DNA of 64,000 bases from a bacterium. GTDB taxonomy: Bacteria > UBA8248 > JACPRG01 > G963555815. A program made the position numbers and the translations under genes. Each line of letters opens with the position of its first letter. Within the stretch, counting starts at the first letter, position 1. This document shows positions 21,815-33,240 of this stretch, one piece after another. The stretch is from assembly GCA_965218795.1 (NCBI GenBank), contig OZ244653.1:1568001-1632000 (forward strand). Direction: 5' to 3'. The notes under the pieces were generated by a model. That model was not told where the DNA came from, made no database searches, and saw only the letters and a list, made by a program, of their open reading frames with translations.

Positions 21815-21991
21815 TCAGTCGTCGCCGATTGCCGGTTCAGCATCCAAGCCGGAGGGAACCACGACCAGATACAGGCCATTGCCATCCGCATATTGACCCG
21901 GCTTCTTCAACGATCGTACCCGGACGGCTGTCAGAGCGTTGACCGGATGCGGGCGGCGGACATCGGTCTCACCGGCTCCGTCAATCCGCAT
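21815..21991 (-). pseudogene. Tyrosine integrase arm-type DNA-binding domain remnant (P4-like, DUF4102)
   Basis: NALTAVRVRSLKKPGQYADGNGLYLVVVPSG N-terminal signature, then loss of homology and a stop. Confidence 0.75.
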
Positions 21992-22228
21992 ACTTGATGG
22001 TGTTCTGAATTGTATATGAGTGAAATCGATCATTTTGTAAATCGCTTGAAATGAGCAACGTAAAATAGATTTTCGGTATACCGCTGCATTCATCGCCTGG
22101 AAGCTGTTTCAGACCCTGTCGGCTTCCGACGTTCAGGAGACGCTGGATATGCACCGGAAGCCACCGGCGTCAGCCGTGTCCAGGTTCGGCACCGGGCAAG
22201 ATCGAACGCTATGAAACTTCATGGGAAC

Positions 22229-22312
22229 TGGATTTGCCCCGTTTCGGTGGACACTTTCAGACTGTGCGCAGGAGTTGTTCAGATGCCGAAAGCCCATCCG
22301 CCTTACGCGCTG
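22229..22312 (+). mobile_element. IS3-family left-end remnant with start of OrfA
   Basis: TGGATTTGCCCCGTTTCGGTGGACAC resembles an IS3-family terminal IR; AGGAG RBS then MPKAHPPYA, cut off at about 22311. Confidence 0.6.
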
Positions 22313-22870
22313 AGCAGGATCGGAAATAACTGTAGGGGCCAGTTTTACCGTGTCATACCGTGCCTATGCGTGTCATACCGTGCCAGAGTGGGTGGGGTGC
22401 CGTGGCGGCGCGCCGCAAAGATGCGTTTCAAATGCTGGTCAAACGTCACAATTCCGACCGCCGCCTTCCTGCGTCGGACGCCTGAATACAGCGTAACAAG
22501 CGCCTTTTCCGGGACAAATTAAAGACATGAGGGGTTCACAACACCCCTGGGGCCGGGATGGCCAGGCAGGCCGGGACCCCAAAACGACAAAAATATCTGT
22601 AGATTTCGGCCTTGCAACGGTCGAAAAGGCCCTTGCAACGCCGTTTCATGGGCGGTTCCGGGGCCTTTTTTCGTGGGGCGCCGCTTGCTCTCCCTCCCCT
22701 GAACGGGGAATCGGCGAAAGTCCGGTCCGCCGGTGCGGCCCCTTCATGTATCACTCCCCCCTTGAGGGGGAGTCGGCAAGGCGCAGCCGAGCCGGTGGGG
22801 GGAAATCGGCTGTTCGCCTTCACGCGACGGAGGGAGTGGAGCGGCCTTGTTGCCGGACAAGGGCGGGAAA
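22311..22870 (+). repeat. Left copy of a long modular non-coding element (MITE-like)
   Basis: Matches the reverse complement of 30290-31033; block 22491-22536 equals rc(30797-30842) at 45/46 positions. Confidence 0.85.
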
Positions 22871-23101
22871 CCAGTCTCCCTCGCCCCCGCCCTGTGAGCG
22901 AGTCCCCCTGACGAGGGGGGACAGGGAATTGTCCGTGCGCCCAACACTCCCCGCATCACGCATAATCGCGCCTTGGGTGGGCGATGCCGTCCCGGCCCCG
23001 CCGCCAACGACCCGCCTCGCCGTGGGAAGCCCTTTCGGTTATGATTCCGGTAGCTGACGAGGACCGCCCAAAGAATCCCGATGAGAAAAGAACCCGATTG
23101 A

Positions 23102-25888
23102 ATGCGCCTGTCGTGGAATGAGATTCGCGTCCGGGCCGCCGCCTTCGCCGAGGAGTGGCGGGACGCGGCCTACGAGAAGGGCGAGACGCAAAGCTTCTAC
23201 AACGACTTCTTCCAGGTGTTCGGCGTCCTCCGGCGGACCGTCGCGCGCTACGAAGAGCACGTCAAGCGGCTCGACAACACCCACGGCTACATCGACCTGT
23301 TCTGGCCGGGCGTCCTGCTCGTCGAGCAGAAGAGCGCCGGGCGCGATCTAGACCGCGCCTACGACCAGGCCGGGGCGTATTTCGACGCGCTTGCCGAGCA
23401 CGACCGGCCCCGCTACATCCTCCTGAGCGACTTCCAGACCTTCGAGCTTCACGATCTTGATGAACGGGAGGCCGTAACCTTCCCGCTTACGGACCTGCCC
23501 GGTCACGTCGAAGCGTTCGGCTTCATCCTGGGGGTTCAGAAGCGCGTCTTCCGGGATCAGGACCCGGTCAACATCGCGGCGTCCGAGCTCGTGGGCAGGC
23601 TGCACGACGCCCTTGCCGAGGCGGGCTACCGGGGCCACGACCTGGAGCGGTTCCTGGTTCGGATCGTGTTCTGCCTGTTCGCCGACGACACCGGCGTCTT
23701 CGAGCCGCGCGACATCTTCCTGGACCTGCTTGAGAACCGCACCGCCGAAGACGGATCCGATACCGGGTCGCGGCTGGCCGAACTGTTCCAGGTTCTCGAC
23801 ACTCCGGAAGAGGAGCGCCAAAAGACGCTCGACGAGGACCTCGCCCGGTTCCCCTACGTGAACGGCGCTCTGTTCGAGGGGCCGTTGCGCATCCCGTCGT
23901 TCGACGCTTCCATGCGCGAGGCCCTGCTGGATGTTTGCCGGTTCGACTGGTCGAACATCTCGCCCGCCATCTTCGGCTCGCTGTTCCAGTCGGTCATGGA
24001 GCCTGCGGAGCGCCGGGCCCAGGGCGCCCACTACACCACCGAGAAGAACATCCTCAAGGTCATCGAGCCTTTGTTCATGGACGACCTGCGGTCGGAGTTC
24101 GAACGGCTCAAGGCCCGCAAGGACAGCCGCCGTGTCGCAGAGCTTCGGAGGTTTCAGGAAAAGCTGGGGAGGATGACGTTCTTCGACCCGGCCTGCGGGT
24201 GCGGGAACTTCCTGATCATCGCCTACCGGGAGCTGCGCGAGCTTGAAATCGCGGTGATGAAGGAAATCCATCCCCACGGTCAGTTGGATGTGCTGGCGGA
24301 AACCCTGTCCGTGATCGACGTGGATCAGTTCTACGGAATCGAGATCGGCGAGTTCCCGGCCCGGATCGCCGAGACCGCCCTGTGGATGATGGACCACATC
24401 ATGAACAACCGGCTCAGCCTGGAGTTCGGCCAGACCTATGCGCGGATTCCCTTGCGGACTTCGCCGCGCATCGTGAACGCCGACGCGCTGGAGACCGACT
24501 GGACGGAACTGCTGAAGCCGGAAGACTGTTCCTTCGTGTTCGGCAATCCGCCCTTCGTGGGCGCGAAGTTCCAGACCACGGAGCAGCGCTCCCAAGTGCG
24601 CCGCATCGCCGCCCTGGGCAGGACCGGCGGCACGCTCGACTACGTGACCGCGTGGTTCATCAAGGCCGGGGAGTATGTGCGAACGAGCCCGGCCCGCATC
24701 GGCTTCGTCGCCACCAACTCCATCACCCAGGGGGAGCAGGTGGCGCAGCTCTGGCCGATCCTGTTCGACCGCTGCAGGCTGGAGATCGCCTTTGCCCACC
24801 GCACCTTTGCCTGGGGTTCGGACGCCCGCTGGGCGGCCCACGTGCACGTCGTGATCATCGGTCTTGACCGGCGTAAGAATGCGCGGTCGGACAAGCGCCT
24901 GTTCAGCTATCCCGACATTAACGGCCAGCCGGAGGAAACGCTTCATGCCGCGCTCTTGCCCTACCTGTTCGACGCCGGGCGATTGGCGGACCCTCACCTC
25001 ACCGTGCGCGAGGAAGGCAGGCCGATTAACGGGGCACGAAGACTGATCACCGGATCCAAACCCATCGACATGGGATACTTCATTTTCAATGCCGAGCAGC
25101 GAAGGGACTTCTTGGCAGCGGAACCGGGCGCTGCACCGTTCTTGCGTCCGTTCGTGGGCGCGCGGGAATATCTGCGAGGCGGGGAACGCTGGATTCTCGC
25201 CCTCCACGACGCGCCGCCGAACGAGTTAGCGCAACTGCCGCATGTACGAGAACGCATTGCTGCTGTCCGCGCGTACCGTGAGGAAAGCGACAGCCTGCCG
25301 ACGCAAAAGCTCGCGGAGACGCCGACGCTCTACCATGTGAACGTGATCCCTACTGTGCCGTTCCTGGTGATCCCTGAAGTGAGTTCCGAGCGGCGGGAGT
25401 ACATCCCCATCGCATGGATGGAGCCGCCCGTGATCCCGAGCAATCTCGTTCGTATAGTCCAGAACGCCGCCCTATACGACTTTGCCCTGCTTACCTCCGC
25501 CATGCACATGAGCTGGCTGCGCTATGTCGGCGGACGGCTAGAGAGTCGCTACCGCTACTCCATCGGCCTTGTCTACAACACTTTTCCGCTACCGCCCGTT
25601 GGCGAAGAGGAACTGGAACGCCTTGTTCCCCACGCCGAGGCCGTCCTCGACGCCCGCGCGAACCATCCCGATGCGACGCTGGCCGACCTCTACGACCCCG
25701 ACCTCATGCCTGCCGATCTGCGCAAGGGCCACCGAGCCCTCGACCGCGCCGTGGACCGGCTCTACCGCCGCGCCCCCTTCCCCTCCGAACGCGAGCGCGT
25801 GGAGCACTTGTTCATGCTCTATGAGAAGATGCGTTCGCCCCTGGAAGCCGGGGTGAAGGCGAAACGGAGGAAAAAGCGGCGGGGGTGA
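23102..25888 (+). CDS. MmeI-like (Type IIL) fused restriction endonuclease/N6-adenine methyltransferase (YeeA-like)
   Basis: N-terminal IDLFWPGVLLVEQKS nuclease-type motif, GAHYT, FFDPACGCGNF (motif I), GNPPF (motif IV), C-terminal TLADLYDP. Confidence 0.92.
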   Translation: MRLSWNEIRVRAAAFAEEWRDAAYEKGETQSFYNDFFQVFGVLRRTVARYEEHVKRLDNTHGYIDLFWPGVLLVEQKSAGRDLDRAYDQAGAYFDALAEHDRPRYILLSDFQTFELHDLDEREAVTFPLTDLPGHVEAFGFILGVQKRVFRDQDPVNIAASELVGRLHDALAEAGYRGHDLERFLVRIVFCLFADDTGVFEPRDIFLDLLENRTAEDGSDTGSRLAELFQVLDTPEEERQKTLDEDLARFPYVNGALFEGPLRIPSFDASMREALLDVCRFDWSNISPAIFGSLFQSVMEPAERRAQGAHYTTEKNILKVIEPLFMDDLRSEFERLKARKDSRRVAELRRFQEKLGRMTFFDPACGCGNFLIIAYRELRELEIAVMKEIHPHGQLDVLAETLSVIDVDQFYGIEIGEFPARIAETALWMMDHIMNNRLSLEFGQTYARIPLRTSPRIVNADALETDWTELLKPEDCSFVFGNPPFVGAKFQTTEQRSQVRRIAALGRTGGTLDYVTAWFIKAGEYVRTSPARIGFVATNSITQGEQVAQLWPILFDRCRLEIAFAHRTFAWGSDARWAAHVHVVIIGLDRRKNARSDKRLFSYPDINGQPEETLHAALLPYLFDAGRLADPHLTVREEGRPINGARRLITGSKPIDMGYFIFNAEQRRDFLAAEPGAAPFLRPFVGAREYLRGGERWILALHDAPPNELAQLPHVRERIAAVRAYREESDSLPTQKLAETPTLYHVNVIPTVPFLVIPEVSSERREYIPIAWMEPPVIPSNLVRIVQNAALYDFALLTSAMHMSWLRYVGGRLESRYRYSIGLVYNTFPLPPVGEEELERLVPHAEAVLDARANHPDATLADLYDPDLMPADLRKGHRALDRAVDRLYRRAPFPSERERVEHLFMLYEKMRSPLEAGVKAKRRKKRRG

Positions 25889-25906
25889 CCAATCTTCAAC
25901 AGAACA

Positions 25907-26773
25907 CTAACGGGTGAATCCATAATCCCAGCGATTCTTGAGCTCCTCATCTTCGTCTTCGTCGTCGGCGAATACGTGGGAAGAAAGAATGGTCAGCGTC
26001 TTGCCATAGGTCCCGAGGCCAACGACCTCCTCCACACCCGAGATGGACCGGTGGCCGCCAAACCAGTCGCGCAGATCTGTTTCGCCTTCGCGACGCCGTG
26101 CATGTGTCACATTGGCGGGGTCACGGTTAAAGGCGTCGGTCTCAACGCCTGCGGGTAGCGATTGGCTCTTTTGGGGCCATTCCAAGTCATCGAAATCCTT
26201 CAACGGTTTCGACATGAAACAATAATCGATACGTGGACCGATGCTGATCACCATGGCCACCGGGACGCTTGCCTCGTGGATGTAGCGGTTGGCTGCTGCC
26301 GTGAGCGAGGTTACGCAGCGATCCGCCATAGATTCGACTGCCTGCAATCCATCGCCAAACTTCCGTAATTCCTGTGAGAGCAGTGAGTCGGGCATCAACA
26401 GAGCTCCAGCAAAATGATCGGCTTCACGCTCGTAGTGATCATCTGCGGCAAATCCGGCGTGCGATTCATGAATGCCATCATGGGGCAAGATGGCCTCTAC
26501 GTGACCAGGAAGCCGGTAATGCCCGATTTCGTGGGCAACGCAGAAGCGCTTGAATCCTTCATTGTTGATATGAGTGGCGTAGCCGATGGCAAATTCGTTG
26601 CCACGGCGTATGAGCATCCCTGATACCCCGCCGGTAGCGGGCTTGGGCTGAACCAGAACACCCAGCGATTCAGCAATGGCGATGGGGTCGACTGGTAGGC
26701 AATCGATTTCAAGCTCCTTGATTAGCCGCTCGGCTTCATGGGCTGCGAATAAATCATGCTCCCTGCCCGCCAC
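25907..26773 (-). CDS. capP: ImmA/IrrE family metallopeptidase (CapP-like)
   Basis: RFCVAHEIGH (HExxH), EREADHFAGALLMP, TSLTAAA; directly follows the XRE gene; next to a CBASS. Symbol assigned from context. Confidence 0.85.
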   Translation of the reverse strand: MAGREHDLFAAHEAERLIKELEIDCLPVDPIAIAESLGVLVQPKPATGGVSGMLIRRGNEFAIGYATHINNEGFKRFCVAHEIGHYRLPGHVEAILPHDGIHESHAGFAADDHYEREADHFAGALLMPDSLLSQELRKFGDGLQAVESMADRCVTSLTAAANRYIHEASVPVAMVISIGPRIDYCFMSKPLKDFDDLEWPQKSQSLPAGVETDAFNRDPANVTHARRREGETDLRDWFGGHRSISGVEEVVGLGTYGKTLTILSSHVFADDEDEDEELKNRWDYGFTR

Positions 26774-26774
26774 A

Positions 26775-27134
26775 CTAATTGTCCTTTTTTTCGCGTTTCT
26801 TAGCTCGTTCAGCAAGCATCTTGATCATATCTTCAGCGAAAGTGCGATCCGAACCTTTCAGTTGGCCGAGATGACGATGAAGCCTATCAGCGCCTGCAAG
26901 CCCAGCGGGGTCGTGAACACGGCCAAGCAGATAATCGGTTGTGACGTTCAGCGCATCCGCCAGCCGCTTGAGGTTATCGAAGGACGGCTTGCGCGCACCG
27001 ATTTCAAAGTGAGACACGGCGGATGCCTGAAGGCCGGTGATCCGCGCCAACTCGGACTGGTTCAGATCTCGTAGTTCACGCGCCATGCGCAATCTTTCGG
27101 GAAAAATATTCGAGGGTTGGGTTGATTTTTTCAT
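26775..27134 (-). CDS. capH: XRE/Cro-CI HTH transcriptional regulator (CapH-like)
   Basis: LNQSELARITGLQASAVSHFEIGARKPS..LADALNVTTDYLLG; divergent from the CD-NTase. Symbol assigned from context. Confidence 0.88.
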   Translation of the reverse strand: MKKSTQPSNIFPERLRMARELRDLNQSELARITGLQASAVSHFEIGARKPSFDNLKRLADALNVTTDYLLGRVHDPAGLAGADRLHRHLGQLKGSDRTFAEDMIKMLAERAKKREKKDN

Positions 27135-27240
27135 GACGAGATCGTATATTGAAGATGACGTTATTCGAATAGCTGAAATCGCCTTTTTTTTAGCGTTTCA
27201 GCATGACGAGTTCGTTAAGTATAGACGACGAAAACGTCGT
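27132..27240. promoter_or_regulatory. Divergent capH/CBASS promoter region with repeated candidate operators
   Basis: CATGACGAG(A/T)TCGT at 27132-27145 and 27202-27215; palindrome ACGACG-AAAA-CGTCGT at 27225-27240; AT-rich. Confidence 0.6.
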
Positions 27241-27306
27241 TCACAACAATTATCGAAACTACGCTCCGGCCGAGTTGCCGGGGCAACCAATCAAGGAGGG
27301 GAAACG

Positions 27307-28575
27307 ATGGCTTCTCCAAACGTTAGACAGTCTCCGCGGCCACCCCTGACTGATCCGGTGGACATGCTCCTAGCTGACGTGGCTATCCGCGTCCAGCTCA
27401 GCCGAACCGATTATAACAAAACCGTTAATAGGTATCAGGCAATCAACCGCTGGATCGAACGCGTCGAGAGCCCGCTGGAGGATCGTGTCGAATTATTTTA
27501 TCCGCAGGGGTCTATGGCGATCAACGCCACAATCGCATCGAAGCTCAAGACGGACGAGTTCGACATCGACGTGGTGGCGCAACTCGATCTTCCGGCAGAC
27601 GTATCGCCCACAAAAGTCCTGGACCTGTTGCACCAAGCGATCAAGGGAGAACCGGGTTCCAGATACCATCGGATGGTAAGGCGGAGAACGCGGTGCGTTA
27701 CCGTCGATTACCGCGATGACATGCACCTCGATGTCACGCCGATGCTACGCCGGGCGGGGACTCCGGAGCGGGAGAGCTGGATATTTCACCACAGACCGGA
27801 AACGCCACACCAACCGGGTCGTCGGCTCGTCGCCAACCCTTATGGCTTCGCCGAATTGTTCAAGGACAGCACACCACCCGATCACGCCTTCACCGAGGAT
27901 TTCGAGACGCGGGCGGGCGAGTGCGAGGCGCGGATATTCGCAGAAATGGCGGACAGCGATCCTGTTCCACCCCAGGACCTGTCATTTCGAAAATCCAAGG
28001 CAGTGATCGTCCTCCAACTCCTGAAGCGCTGGCGTAACGTGCAATACGACAGGCGTGATGGCCGACGACCACCATCGATCATGATGGCGAAACTGGTGGC
28101 CGACGCTGCGAACCATACGGACCGACTGTCGGAGGAAATGCTACTCCAGGCCGATCACATGTTGTCCGTATTCCAGCGATACCACCACGGAGGTCATCTC
28201 ATTCGCGTTGTAAACCCGGTGTGTGAACAGGATATTCTGACTGATCGCTGGCCAGGGTCGTTGGAGGACCAAGCGGTGTTCATCCGCGACCTCGAAAACT
28301 TTGTTGCTAAGGTCGAGCGCCTGGTTTCCGGATGTGATCTTGGAAAAATGCGGGAAATCATGGCGGAACTATTCGGCGAAGTGCCAACAGGGGATGCTTT
28401 CGTGGCCTTCAACCAGCGTTTGGGCGACAAAGTTCATGGCGGAAGTCAGTATAGCCCCAACAACGGCAGACTGGTCGTTCCGGCAACAGCGGCCGGGGCA
28501 AGCATGACGGCGCCGTTGGCAACCAGCACAACGCCAAAACACACCTTCTACGGCGGTGATCGGCATAGACAATGA
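27307..28575 (+). CDS. CBASS cGAS/DncV-like nucleotidyltransferase (CD-NTase, SMODS type)
   Basis: PQGS..T..DEFDIDV, MHLDVTP, ANPYGF, QLLKRWR, PPSI and NPV motifs; C-terminal HTFYGG; AAGGAGG RBS. Confidence 0.9.
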   Translation: MASPNVRQSPRPPLTDPVDMLLADVAIRVQLSRTDYNKTVNRYQAINRWIERVESPLEDRVELFYPQGSMAINATIASKLKTDEFDIDVVAQLDLPADVSPTKVLDLLHQAIKGEPGSRYHRMVRRRTRCVTVDYRDDMHLDVTPMLRRAGTPERESWIFHHRPETPHQPGRRLVANPYGFAELFKDSTPPDHAFTEDFETRAGECEARIFAEMADSDPVPPQDLSFRKSKAVIVLQLLKRWRNVQYDRRDGRRPPSIMMAKLVADAANHTDRLSEEMLLQADHMLSVFQRYHHGGHLIRVVNPVCEQDILTDRWPGSLEDQAVFIRDLENFVAKVERLVSGCDLGKMREIMAELFGEVPTGDAFVAFNQRLGDKVHGGSQYSPNNGRLVVPATAAGASMTAPLATSTTPKHTFYGGDRHRQ

Positions 28576-29015
28576 GTCTGACGATTTGGAAGCAGATCGA
28601 ATCCATGCGGCGGAAATGGCCGGACTTCCGGGTTCTTCAACGCACGAGCCAGATTGCATATTGGGAAGGGAAACTGCGGCCTCTAAGCCAAGTTTACACT
28701 GTTAGGATATTCTTTTACCGCGAACGAAAAAACTACCGCGCTGAGATTTCATCGTCTACGCACGTGACGGTAATCGACCCGCTGCTGCGCCAACGGATCG
28801 AAGATCCGGACGAGCCAATCCCGCACCACTACCCGAACCAGCGCTGTCCTGAACAACCAATACTCTGTCTGCATGATCCGGACGCGCATGAATGGGATCA
28901 TTCCCGTCCAATCGCCCAGACCATCGTCCCTTGGACGATTGATTGGCTGGCTTGCTACGAAGGCTGGCTTGCCACAGGCGAATGGACCGGCGGCGGGAGG
29001 CACCCAACGGCCTAG
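28572..29015 (+). CDS. Stand-alone prokaryotic E2-like protein of CBASS (type II short)
   Basis: WEGKLRP, IPH, LCL (candidate catalytic Cys), IAQTIVPWTIDWLACYEGWLATGEWTGGG; ATGA overlap with the CD-NTase. Confidence 0.8.
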   Translation: MSLTIWKQIESMRRKWPDFRVLQRTSQIAYWEGKLRPLSQVYTVRIFFYRERKNYRAEISSSTHVTVIDPLLRQRIEDPDEPIPHHYPNQRCPEQPILCLHDPDAHEWDHSRPIAQTIVPWTIDWLACYEGWLATGEWTGGGRHPTA

Positions 29016-29020
29016 GGGAT

Positions 29021-30091
29021 ATGACCATGTCCGACACCATCGAGGAAAAGCCTCCGAAACGATCCGCCGGGGCGCTCAAACAGCGCCGCGTTCCGCTACC
29101 TTGGCCGGAAAAGCGGGACTTTCGCATCCTTTCCATTGATGGCGGAGGTATCCGTGGGATATTTCCCGCCTGTTTCCTTGGAGGGCTAGAAGAACGTTAT
29201 CTCGGCGGTTCCTCGGTGGCTCAATATTTCGATCTCATCGTCGGAACCTCGACAGGCGGCATCATTGCCCTTGGGCTCGGTTCCGGGTTCCGAGCAGCCA
29301 AGCTGCGGAATCTTTACATCGAACGCGGATGCAAAATCTTCCCTCCCGTTCACAACGGCCCTATTGGAACTGCGGAACGCCGCCTGAGGGACTTCTGCAA
29401 ATATTTCAAGTTTCGTTACGATCGGAAGGCGCTCATGCGCATTTTGCGCGAGACTCTCGGCGACCGAAAATTCGGCGAGGCGCGGTCACGGCTGTGCATC
29501 CCTTCCTTCGATGGCCGATACGGTGAAGTGTATATATTCAAGACCCCGCATCATCCCGACTTCCGCAAGGATGCCAAGGAGCGTATGACGAAGGTGGCCG
29601 AAGCCACCGCGGCCGCACCGACGTTCTTCCAGCCGCTTGTAGATGGCGGTTATACGTTCGTTGACGGCGGGGTCTGGGCGAACAACCCCACTATGATCGC
29701 GTTGGTCGATGCGCTTTCATGTTTCTCCGTACCGCGTGAGCGCATCCGTATTCTGAGCCTGGGCTGCGGAGATGATCCATACGTCGTTGACGAACCGAAG
29801 GTGTCGCGAGGCGGCATCTTGGCTTGGCGCGACATCATTGATGCCGCGATGCGGCTTCAGTCCGCCAATGCCCTCGGGCAAGCCGGATTGCTGATTGGCG
29901 CGGATAGGATCATTCGGGCCGACGCGCCGACGAGCGAGCAAAAAATCGAAATGGATGACTGGAGCCGCGCAGTGACAGAGTTACCCAACGCAGCGGACGC
30001 AGCCCTCGACGAGTTGGGCCAAGCCGTGGCGTCGGTATTTCTCTCGGAGCCCGCCGCTCCTTACCAGCCAGTTCTCGTTTCGGCATCTTAA
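29021..30091 (+). CDS. capV: CBASS patatin-like phospholipase effector (CapV-like)
   Basis: ILSIDGGGIRG, GTSTG nucleophile, AAAPTFF, DGGVWANNP, LSLGCG. Confidence 0.9.
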   Translation: MTMSDTIEEKPPKRSAGALKQRRVPLPWPEKRDFRILSIDGGGIRGIFPACFLGGLEERYLGGSSVAQYFDLIVGTSTGGIIALGLGSGFRAAKLRNLYIERGCKIFPPVHNGPIGTAERRLRDFCKYFKFRYDRKALMRILRETLGDRKFGEARSRLCIPSFDGRYGEVYIFKTPHHPDFRKDAKERMTKVAEATAAAPTFFQPLVDGGYTFVDGGVWANNPTMIALVDALSCFSVPRERIRILSLGCGDDPYVVDEPKVSRGGILAWRDIIDAAMRLQSANALGQAGLLIGADRIIRADAPTSEQKIEMDDWSRAVTELPNAADAALDELGQAVASVFLSEPAAPYQPVLVSAS

Positions 30092-30289
30092 GCAGCATTC
30101 ACCCGTATCCGCCGTGTAAGGATCTCCTTTGGTGTCGCCCTGAAAGTGCGAGACGGGTGGGGAACCGCTCTGGAGTACACGCCGCTGCGGGATTCCAGGG
30201 ACACCCTACAGAATGAATGACTTTCGGATGGGTGGGCCGTAGCGTCCGTGCACGGTCAGGGGCGCACGGGTCGTGGCCGTAGGGTTCTC

Positions 30290-31033
30290 GCCGCCGTCGG
30301 GCAACAAGGCTGCTCCGCCGCGTGAAGCCGAACGTCTATCTCCCCCCACCGGCTCGGCTGCGCCTTGCCGATTCCGTTTTAAGGGGGGGGAGTGATTTGA
30401 AGGACCCGGGGAGGGAGAGCAAGCGGCGCCCCACGAAAAAAGGCCCTGGAGACGCCTATGAAACGGCGTTGCAAGGATGTTGCAAGGGGCGTGCATTGCC
30501 TCTTTCTGATAAGTACCGATCGGCTTGTCTGGATTCCCGCTTTCGTCCGGCAACAAGGCCGCTCCGTCGCGTGAAGCGGAACAGCCGTGTCCCCCCACCG
30601 GAAAATCCGCAGGCTGCGCCCTTGATTTGCCGACTCCCCCTCAAGGGGGAGTGATGTATGAAGGGGCCGCACCGGCGGACCAGGTTTCTCCCGGGTGCGC
30701 TGTGTGGCCCTCAGCGGGGCGCCTGTCTGCCTGTCTGCCGGCCAGGCAAGCCGGCCCAGGCAGGCTGTCCGCCCATCCCGGCCCCACGGCGGTTCAAACC
30801 CCTCATGTCTTTAATTTGCCCCGGAAAAGGCGCTTGTTACGCGATGTTTAGGCGTTTGAGGCAGGAAAGCGACGGTCGGATTTTGGGGCGCAGGATCAGG
30901 CGTTCACGCGTACGTTTCGGAGCGCGCCGACGGCCCCCACCGCCACTTTTCCACGGTATTCCACGGTATCCCACGGTATCCCACGGATAAACACGGTATT
31001 TTCCCTCTCTACAGTTATTTACGATCCTGATCA
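30290..31033 (-). repeat. Right (inverted) copy of the long modular non-coding element
   Basis: Reverse complement begins TGATCAGGATCGTAAATAACTGTAG versus left TGAGCAGGATCGGAAATAACTGTAG; internal modules shared. Confidence 0.85.
30951..31000. repeat. 10-bp-period tandem repeat CCACGGTAT(C/T), about 5 units
   Basis: ccacggtatt ccacggtatc ccacggtatc ccacggataa acacggtatt; mirrored by ATACCGTG units at about 22345-22384. Confidence 0.9.
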
Positions 31034-31087: not shown

Positions 31088-32092
31088 TCAGGGTTTGGGG
31101 GCGGCGAAGAAGCGGTCGCGATCGGCGCTCTTGACGAGGATGGTCACGACGTCACCTTTTCGGATGACGGTCAGGCGGACTTCGTCCCCCGCCGCGTTCC
31201 GCCAGATTGCGCGGAAGTACTCCGACATCCGCCTCACGCGGCGCCCGTTGACGTGAGTGATCAGGTCCTTGAGCTTGAGTCCGGTTTGGCTTGCCGGGCC
31301 GCCCGGCGTGAGCCGCTCAAGGGTGAGGCCCCCCTCACCCACCTGGACGACGGTGCCCAGCCATGCTTTGGCCCCGGCCTTGGCCGGCGCCCGCATCTCC
31401 CGCTGCAGGGCATAGACCTCCTCCACCGGCACCACGAGTCCCGCAAATCCCGGGGTCGTTCGCCGGATGAAGGAGATGACGCCGACCACCTCGCCCTGAA
31501 GGTTCAGGAGCGGCCCCCCGCTGTAGCCGAGGCGGACAAAGGCGTCCGTCTGCAGGATCCGGTCCAGCATGAACTCCCAATAGCCGACAAACGGTCCGAC
31601 GGCGTTCAGCGTGCCCAGCGTGACCTCGCGATCGGTTCCCATCCCGCTTCCCACGATCACCACGCCCTGTCCCAGGCGCATGCCGACCGATCGGCCCAGG
31701 GGGAGCACGGGCAGGCCCTCCCCTTTCACGCGGAGAAACGCCAAGTCCCGGCGGCCATCGGATCGGGTCAACGCGGCCGGGAGCTTCCGGCCGTCTGTCA
31801 GCGTCACCATGATCCGGTCGCTGCCCATCACCACGTGATTGCTGGTCAGGATGAGGCCGGTGGGATCGATGAGAGTTCCGGTTCCCTTTCGAGCCTTGCC
31901 GAGGACTTGGGTTGCGGGGGCGCCCTGGGGTGAGTACGCCTCGATTTCGACGACCGCGGGAAGGGCCTGCTTCGCTACCTTGATGACGGCCTCGTACGGA
32001 TCCGCTTCCGCCGCGGCGGTCACCGACGAAGCGGCGGCCGCCCAGAGGAGCAGCGGGACGGCCGACCAAAGGATGGCTGCCCGGCGGATCAC
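31088..32092 (-). CDS. Trypsin-like S1C serine protease with PDZ domain (HtrA-like), catalytic triad intact
   Basis: Signal peptide; TSNHVV, DLAFL, GYSGGPL; PDZ with PASQTGLKLKDLI. Confidence 0.88.
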   Translation of the reverse strand: MIRRAAILWSAVPLLLWAAAASSVTAAAEADPYEAVIKVAKQALPAVVEIEAYSPQGAPATQVLGKARKGTGTLIDPTGLILTSNHVVMGSDRIMVTLTDGRKLPAALTRSDGRRDLAFLRVKGEGLPVLPLGRSVGMRLGQGVVIVGSGMGTDREVTLGTLNAVGPFVGYWEFMLDRILQTDAFVRLGYSGGPLLNLQGEVVGVISFIRRTTPGFAGLVVPVEEVYALQREMRAPAKAGAKAWLGTVVQVGEGGLTLERLTPGGPASQTGLKLKDLITHVNGRRVRRMSEYFRAIWRNAAGDEVRLTVIRKGDVVTILVKSADRDRFFAAPKP

Positions 32093-33093
32093 CGGAAGAA
32101 GGCCTCGCGGTCTCCGCCCGGCACGTGCAGGCGGATGATCTGCTCAGAGCGTTTGATGGTGAGCAGGATGGGGTCGCCGATTCGGTGCCGCCAGATGGCC
32201 CGGTAAAAGTCCGCCTGGCTCTTGACGGGACTCCCGTTGATTTCCCGGATGAAGTCGCGGGGCAGAACGCCCGAAAACGCCGCGGGCCCCTTGGGTGTCA
32301 CATTCCGCACCAGCAGCAGGTCCTCGATGAAAACGGTCTGTACACCGAGCCAGGGGAGATGCCGCCGCTGGTCGCGCCGAAGGTCGAGGAGGTCCTCCCG
32401 GACGGAAGTAAACAGGTCGATGGGAATGGCCATTCCCATCCCGCTCTGCTGTGTCACGTTGAGGGAGACAATCCCGATAACCCGTCCCCGCGCGTCCAGC
32501 AAGGGGGTTCCCCCAAAGTAACCCGAGGTCATGGCGGTCGTATAGATGGCGCGGTCCAGGAGGAATTCCCACGGTGCCGTGAACGGCCGGATGGCGCTGA
32601 CAAGCCCGTGGTGGACGACCCGATCGGCTTCGCCCCGGCTCCCGATGGAAATGGCCATCTGGCCGATTCGCAGGTCCCGCGAACGTCCCAGCGGAGCGGT
32701 GGGGAGACCTTCCGCATCCACCTTGACGAGCCCGAGACCGCTGGAATAGTCAATCTTGTGGACCCGGCCGGACAGACTCCGCCCATCGGTCAGCGTGACC
32801 CGAATCCGGCGGCCGCCCATGATGATATAGCTGGCGGTCAGAATGTATCCGTTCGACGCGACGATGACCCCCGTCCCCGTGCGTTCAGCCCCCAGAATGC
32901 GCGCCGCCGGGTGAACTTCGGGGATCTCCACGTCCAACGTGACAATGGCGGGCGTGACCCGCTCAGCCGCCTGGACCACGGAGGTAAAGGGATCGGGAAA
33001 ATTCTTCTGGGCGGCGGAGGGACCGGCGGACACAACAACAGCCCAAAGGGCCGTGGCGCAAAATAGCGTTCGAAACGGGGGTCGATGTTTCAT
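32089..33093 (-). CDS. Trypsin-like S1C/PDZ protein with substituted catalytic triad (pseudo-protease)
   Basis: Signal peptide; TASYII, GLGLV and GYFGGTPL replace the His, Asp and Ser motifs. Confidence 0.82.
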   Translation of the reverse strand: MKHRPPFRTLFCATALWAVVVSAGPSAAQKNFPDPFTSVVQAAERVTPAIVTLDVEIPEVHPAARILGAERTGTGVIVASNGYILTASYIIMGGRRIRVTLTDGRSLSGRVHKIDYSSGLGLVKVDAEGLPTAPLGRSRDLRIGQMAISIGSRGEADRVVHHGLVSAIRPFTAPWEFLLDRAIYTTAMTSGYFGGTPLLDARGRVIGIVSLNVTQQSGMGMAIPIDLFTSVREDLLDLRRDQRRHLPWLGVQTVFIEDLLLVRNVTPKGPAAFSGVLPRDFIREINGSPVKSQADFYRAIWRHRIGDPILLTIKRSEQIIRLHVPGGDREAFFR

Positions 33094-33240
33094 TGGGCCA
33101 GAAATCACTCCCTCTTGCATGAACGCGCCCGTCCGCCGTCACGTTCCATTGTACCGGAAAAACACGGAAAGGGGATAAATGATTTCCGGCAGGACGCCAG
33201 ATGGGTCGAGGCCGGGCTTCAATCGGGAGAGGAGTTTCGC

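Follow-up and report, generated by a model that had tools for sequence, protein, structure and literature searches.

We analyzed a window of 64,000 nucleotides (nt) from a bacterial genome of GTDB lineage UBA8248 (assembly GCA_965218795.1, contig OZ244653.1, positions 1,568,001 to 1,632,000, forward strand; window numbering is used below), which very probably carries an intact operon of CBASS, the antiphage signaling system based on cyclic oligonucleotides, in its E2-only, or short type II, form: cdnG-E2-capV under a divergent CapH/CapP pair. The first gene of the operon (27307–28575, plus strand) starts at an ATG behind an AAGGAGG Shine-Dalgarno sequence and encodes a CD-NTase cyclase of 422 amino acids (aa), clade-G-like by its nearest solved relatives, with family matches to PADLOC Cyclase PDLC00800 (E = 7.7e-151), Pfam SMODS (6.4e-13), and the Pfam DncV-like NTFase. 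Its stop codon overlaps the start of the second gene (28572–29015, plus strand; ATG at 28572–28574) by 4 nt, the ATGA of CAATGA, as a first-pass annotation made from the sequence had described. This gene encodes an E2-like protein of 147 aa resembling ubiquitin-conjugating (UBC) enzymes; in PADLOC only E2 models match it, with PDLC00877 at E = 1.3e-46. The third gene (29021–30091, plus strand), whose likely start lies 5–11 nt downstream of the E2 stop, encodes a CapV-type patatin phospholipase of 356 aa (ATG at 29021) or 354 aa (ATG at 29027), predicted from its sequence to be the nucleotide-activated killing effector of the operon. It matches the PADLOC phospholipase effector (E = 6.9e-112) and Pfam Patatin (5e-24), exceeds the cut-off of NCBIfam NF041079, CBASS cGAMP-activated phospholipase (238.6 bits; cut-off 200), aligns with CapV chains in the Protein Data Bank (PDB; E = 5.6e-37 to 3.2e-30), and shows the patatin motifs DGGGIRG (Gly-rich oxyanion loop), GTSTG (the GxSxG serine), and DGG (the DG aspartate). 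The family matches bear out the three gene identities given earlier for 27307–30091, and the NF041079 and PADLOC results support the reading as an E2-only CBASS with a CapV-like phospholipase.

Divergent from the cyclase gene, on the minus strand, lie two regulatory genes (25907–27134) that the first-pass annotation missed, while its account of the triad was correct. CapH (26775–27134; 119 aa) is an XRE-type helix-turn-helix (HTH) repressor (PADLOC capH, E = 1.7e-23; Pfam HTH_3, 1.1e-14), and CapP (25907–26815; at most 302 aa) is an IrrE/M78-type metallopeptidase with a HEIGH (HExxH) motif (PADLOC capP, E = 6.4e-56; Pfam Peptidase_M78, 8.8e-09). The longest capP frame, which begins at a TTG, shares 41 nt with the 3' end of capH, but the PADLOC capP model covers it only from residue 26 onward, so the capP start codon is uncertain. 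The AT-rich divergent intergenic region of 172 bp (27135–27306) contains hexamers resembling promoter elements and is the expected home of the promoters and of the CapH operator, and promoter-like matches on both strands number 6 in 26700–30400 against 1.8 expected. The open frames of all five genes (CapP, CapH, cyclase, E2, and CapV) are full-length, and their catalytic motifs are all intact.

The earlier statement that the operon has no E1 or JAB gene holds for its surroundings: among the neighbors identified by Pfam and PADLOC, none is of either kind. An MmeI-type enzyme, CapP, CapH, and a repeat region are found there, along with a Na+/H+ exchanger on the upstream side and two HtrA-like proteases on the downstream side. 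A single contig of 5.17 Mb makes up the genome, which has one SMODS cyclase and one E2 of the CBASS kind. The operon is at 1.595 Mb, whereas Prok-JAB is matched genome-wide at 2.28 and 4.41 Mb and ThiF, over the family cut-off, at 1.748 Mb, so that the nearest JAB or ThiF match in the whole genome is at least 150 kb away.

The cyclase has a complete nucleotidyltransferase active site of the form GS...[D/E]xD...D, made up of G68-S69, D86/D88, and D142. These residues are invariant in an alignment of 34 sequences, as are D309 and D313 of the lid-3 motif D309-x-x-x-D313, the (D/E)xxxD motif of clade G10; the C-terminal motif H412-T-F-Y-G416 is conserved. Its two best matches in the PDB are 7ljn (E = 8.7e-70, residues 4–416) and 8hsb_A, the Serratia marcescens cyclase SmCdnG (E = 5.5e-16). 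The former is BdCdnG, reported to be part of an E2-CBASS, and clade G is reported to supply 73.65% of E2-CBASS cyclases (PMC12948482). BdCdnG is assigned to clade G10 with the product 3'3'-cUMP-GMP (3'3'-cUG), and its (D/E)xxxD lid is described as reading the donor guanine through E305 and the following Asp (PMC10442399); in the alignment with 7ljn, E305...D309 of BdCdnG falls on D309...D313 here. Other clade-G enzymes, including AsCdnG, SmCdnG, and EcCdnG, are reported to make 3'2'-cGAMP. Because the nearest characterized enzymes make such products, we infer a GTP-donor cyclic dinucleotide, with 3'3'-cUMP-GMP and 3'2'-cGAMP as the candidates; the view that the nucleotide cannot be read from sequence was to this extent overstated. 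Activation loops have been described in nearly all clade-G cyclases, and phage proteases are reported to activate cyclases of clades A, D, and G by cutting an internal loop (PMC12991175). A search for such a loop here, as the least conserved stretch of the cyclase, returned the N-terminus (1–19) and the linker 388–409 as the lowest-scoring windows of 15 residues and thus singled out no internal loop.

The second protein is an E2 by sequence and by predicted fold. It matches PDB 8hsb_B, the E2 of the Serratia marcescens CdnG-E2 complex solved by cryo-electron microscopy (SmE2), at E = 7e-10. H85 (28824–28826, in IPHH) and C99 (28866–28868, in LCL), the predicted catalytic dyad, are invariant in an alignment of 40 E2 sequences from related loci, and H85, C99, and H144 align with H87, C101, and H152 of SmE2 by a hand count of the 8hsb_B alignment, which returns the published SmE2 numbering for C69, H87, C101, S123, Y136, E147, K151, and H152. 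An AlphaFold2 (AF2) model built from the 40 sequences has a mean predicted local distance difference test score (pLDDT) of 85. Foldseek places it nearest to 8yjy_B (template modeling score, TM, 0.73; E = 2.4e-7) and 8hsb_B (TM 0.72; E = 8.7e-7), the next matches being many eukaryotic UBC enzymes at TM 0.41–0.48 with E above 0.09; the 147-aa protein does therefore model as a UBC/E2 fold, on which the earlier reading had been made to depend. When the cyclase and the E2 were modeled together from the two alignments, the interface score ipSAE was 0.78 (median of three runs) against 0.00 for the best control. In the calibration of the tool, 58 of the 80 solved complexes attained that mark and so did 2 of the 110 mismatched pairs, figures that are only a rough guide for the custom alignments used here. 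The three runs share at least 89% of contacts, with partner pLDDT of at least 82, and the modeled interface joins cyclase residues 342–350, 362–391, 407, and 409–417 to E2 residues 34–41, 84–87, 99–103, and 116–145, so that the C-terminal peptide of the cyclase is predicted to sit against the H85/C99 site. The complex score may reflect likeness to the solved complexes 8HSB and 8YJY and not be independent support.

The cyclase C-terminus reads ...PKHTFYGGDRHRQ before the stop codon. The codon of G416, the predicted conjugation residue, occupies 28552–28554, and those of the predicted propeptide G417-D-R-H-R-Q, with the stop, 28555–28575. What happens at such an end is known from Serratia, where trimming of the cyclase tail by the E2 has been shown experimentally (Yan et al., Nat Microbiol 2024; preprint 10.1101/2022.05.25.493364). 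According to the preprint, density for E407 after G406 is absent; linkage is lost in ΔG406-E407 and in G406V/L and is kept in ΔE407; and SmE2 C101A and H87A give neither linkage nor cleavage of maltose-binding protein (MBP) fused behind the cyclase. The wild-type enzyme cuts after G406, and its authors describe SmE2 as a cysteine protease acting on the C-terminal end of the cyclase. The cleavage experiment is reported to have been repeated with green fluorescent protein (GFP) (PMC12948482). The preprint further describes a G406~C101 thioester, poly-cGASylation, and 3'2'-cGAMP as the product. The first-pass proposal that the E2 itself trims the tail agrees with these experiments and, being established by them for the Serratia system, adds no new inference. 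Trimming of the tail or activation of the cyclase by some other protease, whether a host peptidase, one of the neighboring HtrA-like enzymes, or a phage prohead protease, seems highly unlikely to us. Two trypsin/PDZ proteases are indeed encoded just downstream (31088–33120), and phage proteases are reported to cut the internal loop of clade A, D, and G cyclases (PMC12991175); however, the HtrA-like genes lie on the other strand and beyond a repeat, related loci share the triad only, and the Serratia E2 is reported to suffice alone in vitro (10.1101/2022.05.25.493364). Loop cleavage by phage proteases is in any case separate from C-terminal trimming and compatible with trimming by the E2.

The position of the cut can be narrowed by comparison. 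In the best 120 homologues (64–71% identical) of the 1533 with E ≤ 1e-20, the motif H-x-[F/Y]-x-G is present near the end in 119. The residue that follows the conserved Gly is T in 46 of these, G in 26, D in 25, A in 7, and K in 6, with others making up the rest, and the tail after that Gly ranges from 1 to 14 residues (six in 56 of the 119, five in 29, one in 20) and loosely follows x-E-R-(R/H)-x-x. In the 34-sequence alignment the conservation of G416 is at least 90%, and this residue aligns with G406 of SmCdnG. These alignments make G416 the most likely site of conjugation, with the cut probably before G417 and GDRHRQ as the propeptide. The Gly-Gly described earlier is present in this protein, yet the family shares just the first of the two, and since position 417 is variable the pair is incidental; the trimmed tail is likelier to be GDRHRQ than the DRHRQ first proposed. 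That proposal amounts to a ubiquitin-like conjugation through the second Gly, and we regard it as unlikely: the translation does end in ...FYGG-DRHRQ, the cyclase stretch in contact with the E2 in the modeled complex (409–417) includes G417, and a Gly stands at this position in 26 of 119 homologues and 23 of 64 loci, but it is G416 that aligns with the residue reported from mutations to carry the bond in Serratia (10.1101/2022.05.25.493364), and the 20 homologues with a single residue after the conserved Gly, like the spread of residues at 417, speak against a second conserved one.

The tail is also of interest as DNA. We compared the cyclase-E2 junction in 64 loci, namely the window and 63 of 73 related loci (introduced below), leaving out truncated cyclases, loci lacking an E2, and one locus with a broken E2 (L082). 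The E2 start overlaps the cyclase stop in 50 of the 64, the overlap being 4 nt long in 37 of them and 1 nt in the other 13, and GGAG, GAGG, or AGGA occurs 4–18 nt before the E2 start, within the tail codons, in 28 of 64, against 618 of 4416 (14%) control windows of 15 nt inside the cyclase genes. The frequent tail T-E-R-R-K-R, for example, is encoded by ...GAACGGAGGAAACGATG. We infer that the tail DNA serves as the translation-initiation region of the E2 gene, the part that 28555–28575 would play here, and that the residues past G416 need not serve any purpose as a peptide, because the E2 would remove anything beyond the Gly. The E2 frame itself is 60–130 residues longer, and overlaps the patatin start, in L053, L054, L055, L057, L063, L070, and L071; several of these extended frames share the motif ...IGT.ASFPLM..AS...P..W.DW..., and they may represent a genuine extension or simply the patatin gene translated out of frame.

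The case for an E2-only CBASS combines the gene identities, the intact and invariant catalytic residues, the E2 fold, the complex model, the published mechanism, and the conserved triad, and on it the locus is a further member of a known system type, an ordinary, textbook E2-CBASS with CapH/CapP. Several points weigh against this reading or against parts of it. The cyclase was placed with clade G from its nearest solved relatives and not from a reference tree, and the AF2 model of the cyclase monomer from the 34-row alignment is poor (mean pLDDT 48), leaving the C-terminal module, and any activation loop, unconfirmed on the monomer. The E2 is 29% identical, in the Foldseek alignment, to SmE2, the sole E2 with experimental data. 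A search of 27100–27320 for a CapH operator palindrome gave one weak overlapping palindrome at the capH start and none that is clear, and CapH/CapP stand beside only 6 of the 73 related loci (L026, L029, L034, L035, L050, and L082), all six labeled Alphaproteobacteria or Thalassobaculaceae. The tail DNA of the window holds no canonical GGAG-type Shine-Dalgarno sequence, only a GGTGAT far upstream, and its E2 probably relies on ATGA coupling for translation. Finally, the E2 ends GGGRHPTA, three residues past H144, with no equivalent of K159 of SmE2 and with Arg at the position of K151, so the parking step described in Serratia is not transferable to it.

This last point bears on how the system would be kept off. 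SmE2 has 162 aa, and K159 in its disordered C-terminal extension is reported to take the cyclase from C101 into a stable, inhibitory isopeptide; SmE2 K159A or ΔK151-R162 gave more poly-cGAS chains and more activity, and the authors propose a phage signal acting on the SmE2 C-terminus (10.1101/2022.05.25.493364). The lysines of the E2 described here are K7, K15, K34, and K53 only. Among the E2s of the 64 loci, the GGG motif is followed by no Lys in 53, and in 49 at most 8 residues separate it from the C-terminus. Without a K159-type lysine the parked state as described for Serratia does not carry over to this subfamily, and regulation may differ: either another E2 lysine accepts the cyclase, or the cyclase may go from the thioester directly to other targets. 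The second course, in which no stable E2-cyclase isopeptide forms, the thioester passes straight to cyclase chains, and restraint comes from elsewhere (CapH/CapP or a protease-sensitive activation loop), is in our judgment plausible while falling somewhat short of probable. The short, lysine-less C-terminus, its prevalence among relatives, the rise in poly-cGAS when the Serratia lysine or extension is removed, and the activation loops reported in nearly all clade-G cyclases (PMC12991175) all favor it. However, another E2 lysine could be the acceptor, and by the preprint's account K159A left immunity unchanged in Serratia, which suggests that the parked state may matter little anywhere; with ΔK151-R162, immunity was lost in that system, probably because the deletion takes away H152, whose equivalent is kept here (10.1101/2022.05.25.493364).

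By homology, from which all of the following steps are drawn, the E2-only operon would work in this way. CapH would repress the operon until DNA damage or single-stranded DNA activates CapP, upon which CapH would be cleaved and expression would rise, translation of the E2 being coupled to that of the cyclase through the ATGA overlap. The E2 would dock on the C-terminal helix/sheet module of the cyclase, and its C99/H85 pair, acting as a cysteine-protease-like dyad, would cut after G416, free GDRHRQ, and hold the cyclase as a G416~C99 thioester. The cyclase would then be passed to lysines, probably of other cyclases (poly-cyclase chains), raising cyclase activity on infection, and the cyclic dinucleotide made with GTP as donor (3'3'-cUMP-GMP or 3'2'-cGAMP) would switch on CapV, destroying the membrane and aborting the infection.

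A search of genome contigs with the cyclase alignment returned 73 related loci, of which 69 have an E2 next to the cyclase and 64 have a patatin; the loci that lack one or the other are mostly truncated contigs or broken genes. The related cyclases (L011–L083) are 45–74% identical and stand in the same operon in metagenome-assembled genomes of at least ten phyla or classes, among them Latescibacterota, Nitrospirales, Binatia, Acidobacteria, Gemmatimonadetes, Alpha- and Gammaproteobacteria, Spirochaetia, Entotheonella, and Poribacteria, and the operon appears to move widely between lineages. One of these related loci (L038:6001-8475) has a cyclase-like frame of about 825 codons with no separate E2 or patatin match and may be a fusion or a different architecture. 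Tentatively, and as a proposal that we consider doubtful in its full form, the operon may represent a large, horizontally spread E2-CBASS subfamily in which a tail-less E2 only trims and forms chains, the off-state is kept by other means, and the propeptide of 5–6 residues is retained chiefly for the ribosome-binding and start region of the E2 that its codons contain. If this is true, the double use of propeptide and E2 start would tie E2 synthesis one-to-one to cyclase synthesis. The absence of a lysine-bearing C-terminus from most E2s of the subfamily means that the Serratia resting-state model may not be general, and a single conserved Gly followed by a variable tail that coincides with the E2 translation start region may be useful to the E2-CBASS field.

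The operon belongs to an island of about 7 kb (23102–30091) between two copies of a dispersed repeat of about 560–750 nt each, the left at 22311–22874 (plus strand) and the right, inverted relative to it, at 30282–31033 (minus strand), which together contribute nine inverted-repeat pairs, 80–94% complementary, to the flanks. Across the genome, blastn places this repeat at 31 sites (56 pieces), with a close inverted pair only at this island. Its outer ends begin TGA(G/T)CAGGATCG(G/T)AAATAACTGTAG, then short ATACCGTG-like tandem units; an Rfam scan of the whole window gave no match at gathering scores, so the repeat is not a known RNA family. A composite transposon was considered and rejected as unsupported: the repeat is mostly in single copies over the 31 places, and a transposase is absent inside the island. 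Elsewhere in the same genome, outside the window (G000:C1:3757786-3758615, G000 being our identifier for that genome), a 52-nt piece of the repeat occurs three times at 100% identity with a spacing of exactly 389 nt, which suggests a larger tandem array there. ARAGORN found no tRNA gene in the 64-kb window, which leaves no tRNA-linked integration site within it, and a frame at 21815–22093 (minus strand), considered as an integrase N-terminal remnant, was dropped, Pfam giving no match at E ≤ 0.001.

The GC content of the CBASS part is 0.567 against 0.605 for the genome, and one cyclase query did not find the gene in 30 related genomes (counting G000, 31 genomes were covered, and 26 of them pass a filter of at least 90% completeness and at most 5% contamination). 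The GC gap, the repeat flanks, the failure to find the cyclase in the 30 relatives, and the wide spread of the triad point to horizontal acquisition of the island. The same acquisition, together with the lower GC, the flanking repeats, and the failure to find the gene in the 30 relatives searched, might suggest a decaying remnant that no longer defends its host; but all five genes are full-length with every catalytic motif intact, related loci show identical gene spacing and overlaps, and we find decay very improbable. Also inside the island, and likewise missed earlier, an MmeI-type IIG restriction-modification enzyme of 928 aa (23102–25888, plus strand) is convergent with capP and lies outside the CBASS proper. 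It matches Pfam MmeI_N, MmeI_hel, MmeI_Mtase, MmeI_TRD, and MmeI_C and PADLOC REase_MTase_IIG (1173 bits), and these matches mark it as a predicted second defense gene of the island. Past the right-hand repeat, the two HtrA/DegP-like serine protease genes (Trypsin_2 and PDZ domains) lie in tandem on the minus strand; they are probably housekeeping genes unrelated to CBASS.

Among known systems, the E2-CBASS of Serratia marcescens (8HSB/8YJY/9KKB) is one of the closest. Both have a lone E2 with no E1 or JAB, a clade-G-like cyclase ending ...TFYG and a removable tail, and a Cys/His dyad (C101/H87 there, C99/H85 here) with a second His (H152 there, H144 here), and docking through the C-terminal module of the cyclase is predicted here by the complex model. 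They differ in the effector, which is 2TM-SAVED there and CapV here; in the tail, of one residue there and six here (five if the cut follows G417); in the C-terminal extension with K159, which SmE2 carries and the E2 here does not, having Arg in place of K151; and in the CapH/CapP regulators present here, and their sequence likeness is low (cyclase, E = 5.5e-16; E2, about 29% identity). The nearest solved cyclase, BdCdnG of Bradyrhizobium diazoefficiens (7LJN, clade G10), shares the lid-3 motif with the cyclase described here, also ends in a conserved Gly with a short tail, and, by the account in PMC12948482, comes from an E2-CBASS; it belongs to a different organism and its sequence has diverged, and 3'3'-cUMP-GMP, the product reported for BdCdnG, is only a candidate here.

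The regulators match the CapH/CapP module described by Lau et al. (preprint 10.1101/2022.04.27.489752), in which an HTH protein and an M78/IrrE-type peptidase are divergent from the core operon, although the pair accompanies so few of the related cdnG-E2-capV loci. Type II CBASS with Cap2 (an E1-E2 fusion) and Cap3 (JAB), such as DncV-CapV of V. cholerae or EcCdnG-Cap5 of E. coli, likewise regulates signaling by ubiquitin-like conjugation of the cyclase C-terminus, and CapV, its commonest effector, is also the effector here. Those systems have an E1 domain and a JAB peptidase, which this operon does not, and their E2 belongs to a different family, catalytic His residues being reported, in the preprint's account, only for the E2s of E2-CBASS (10.1101/2022.05.25.493364). 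A further difference is the extra C-terminal module that the cyclase described here is predicted to carry and on which its E2 would dock.

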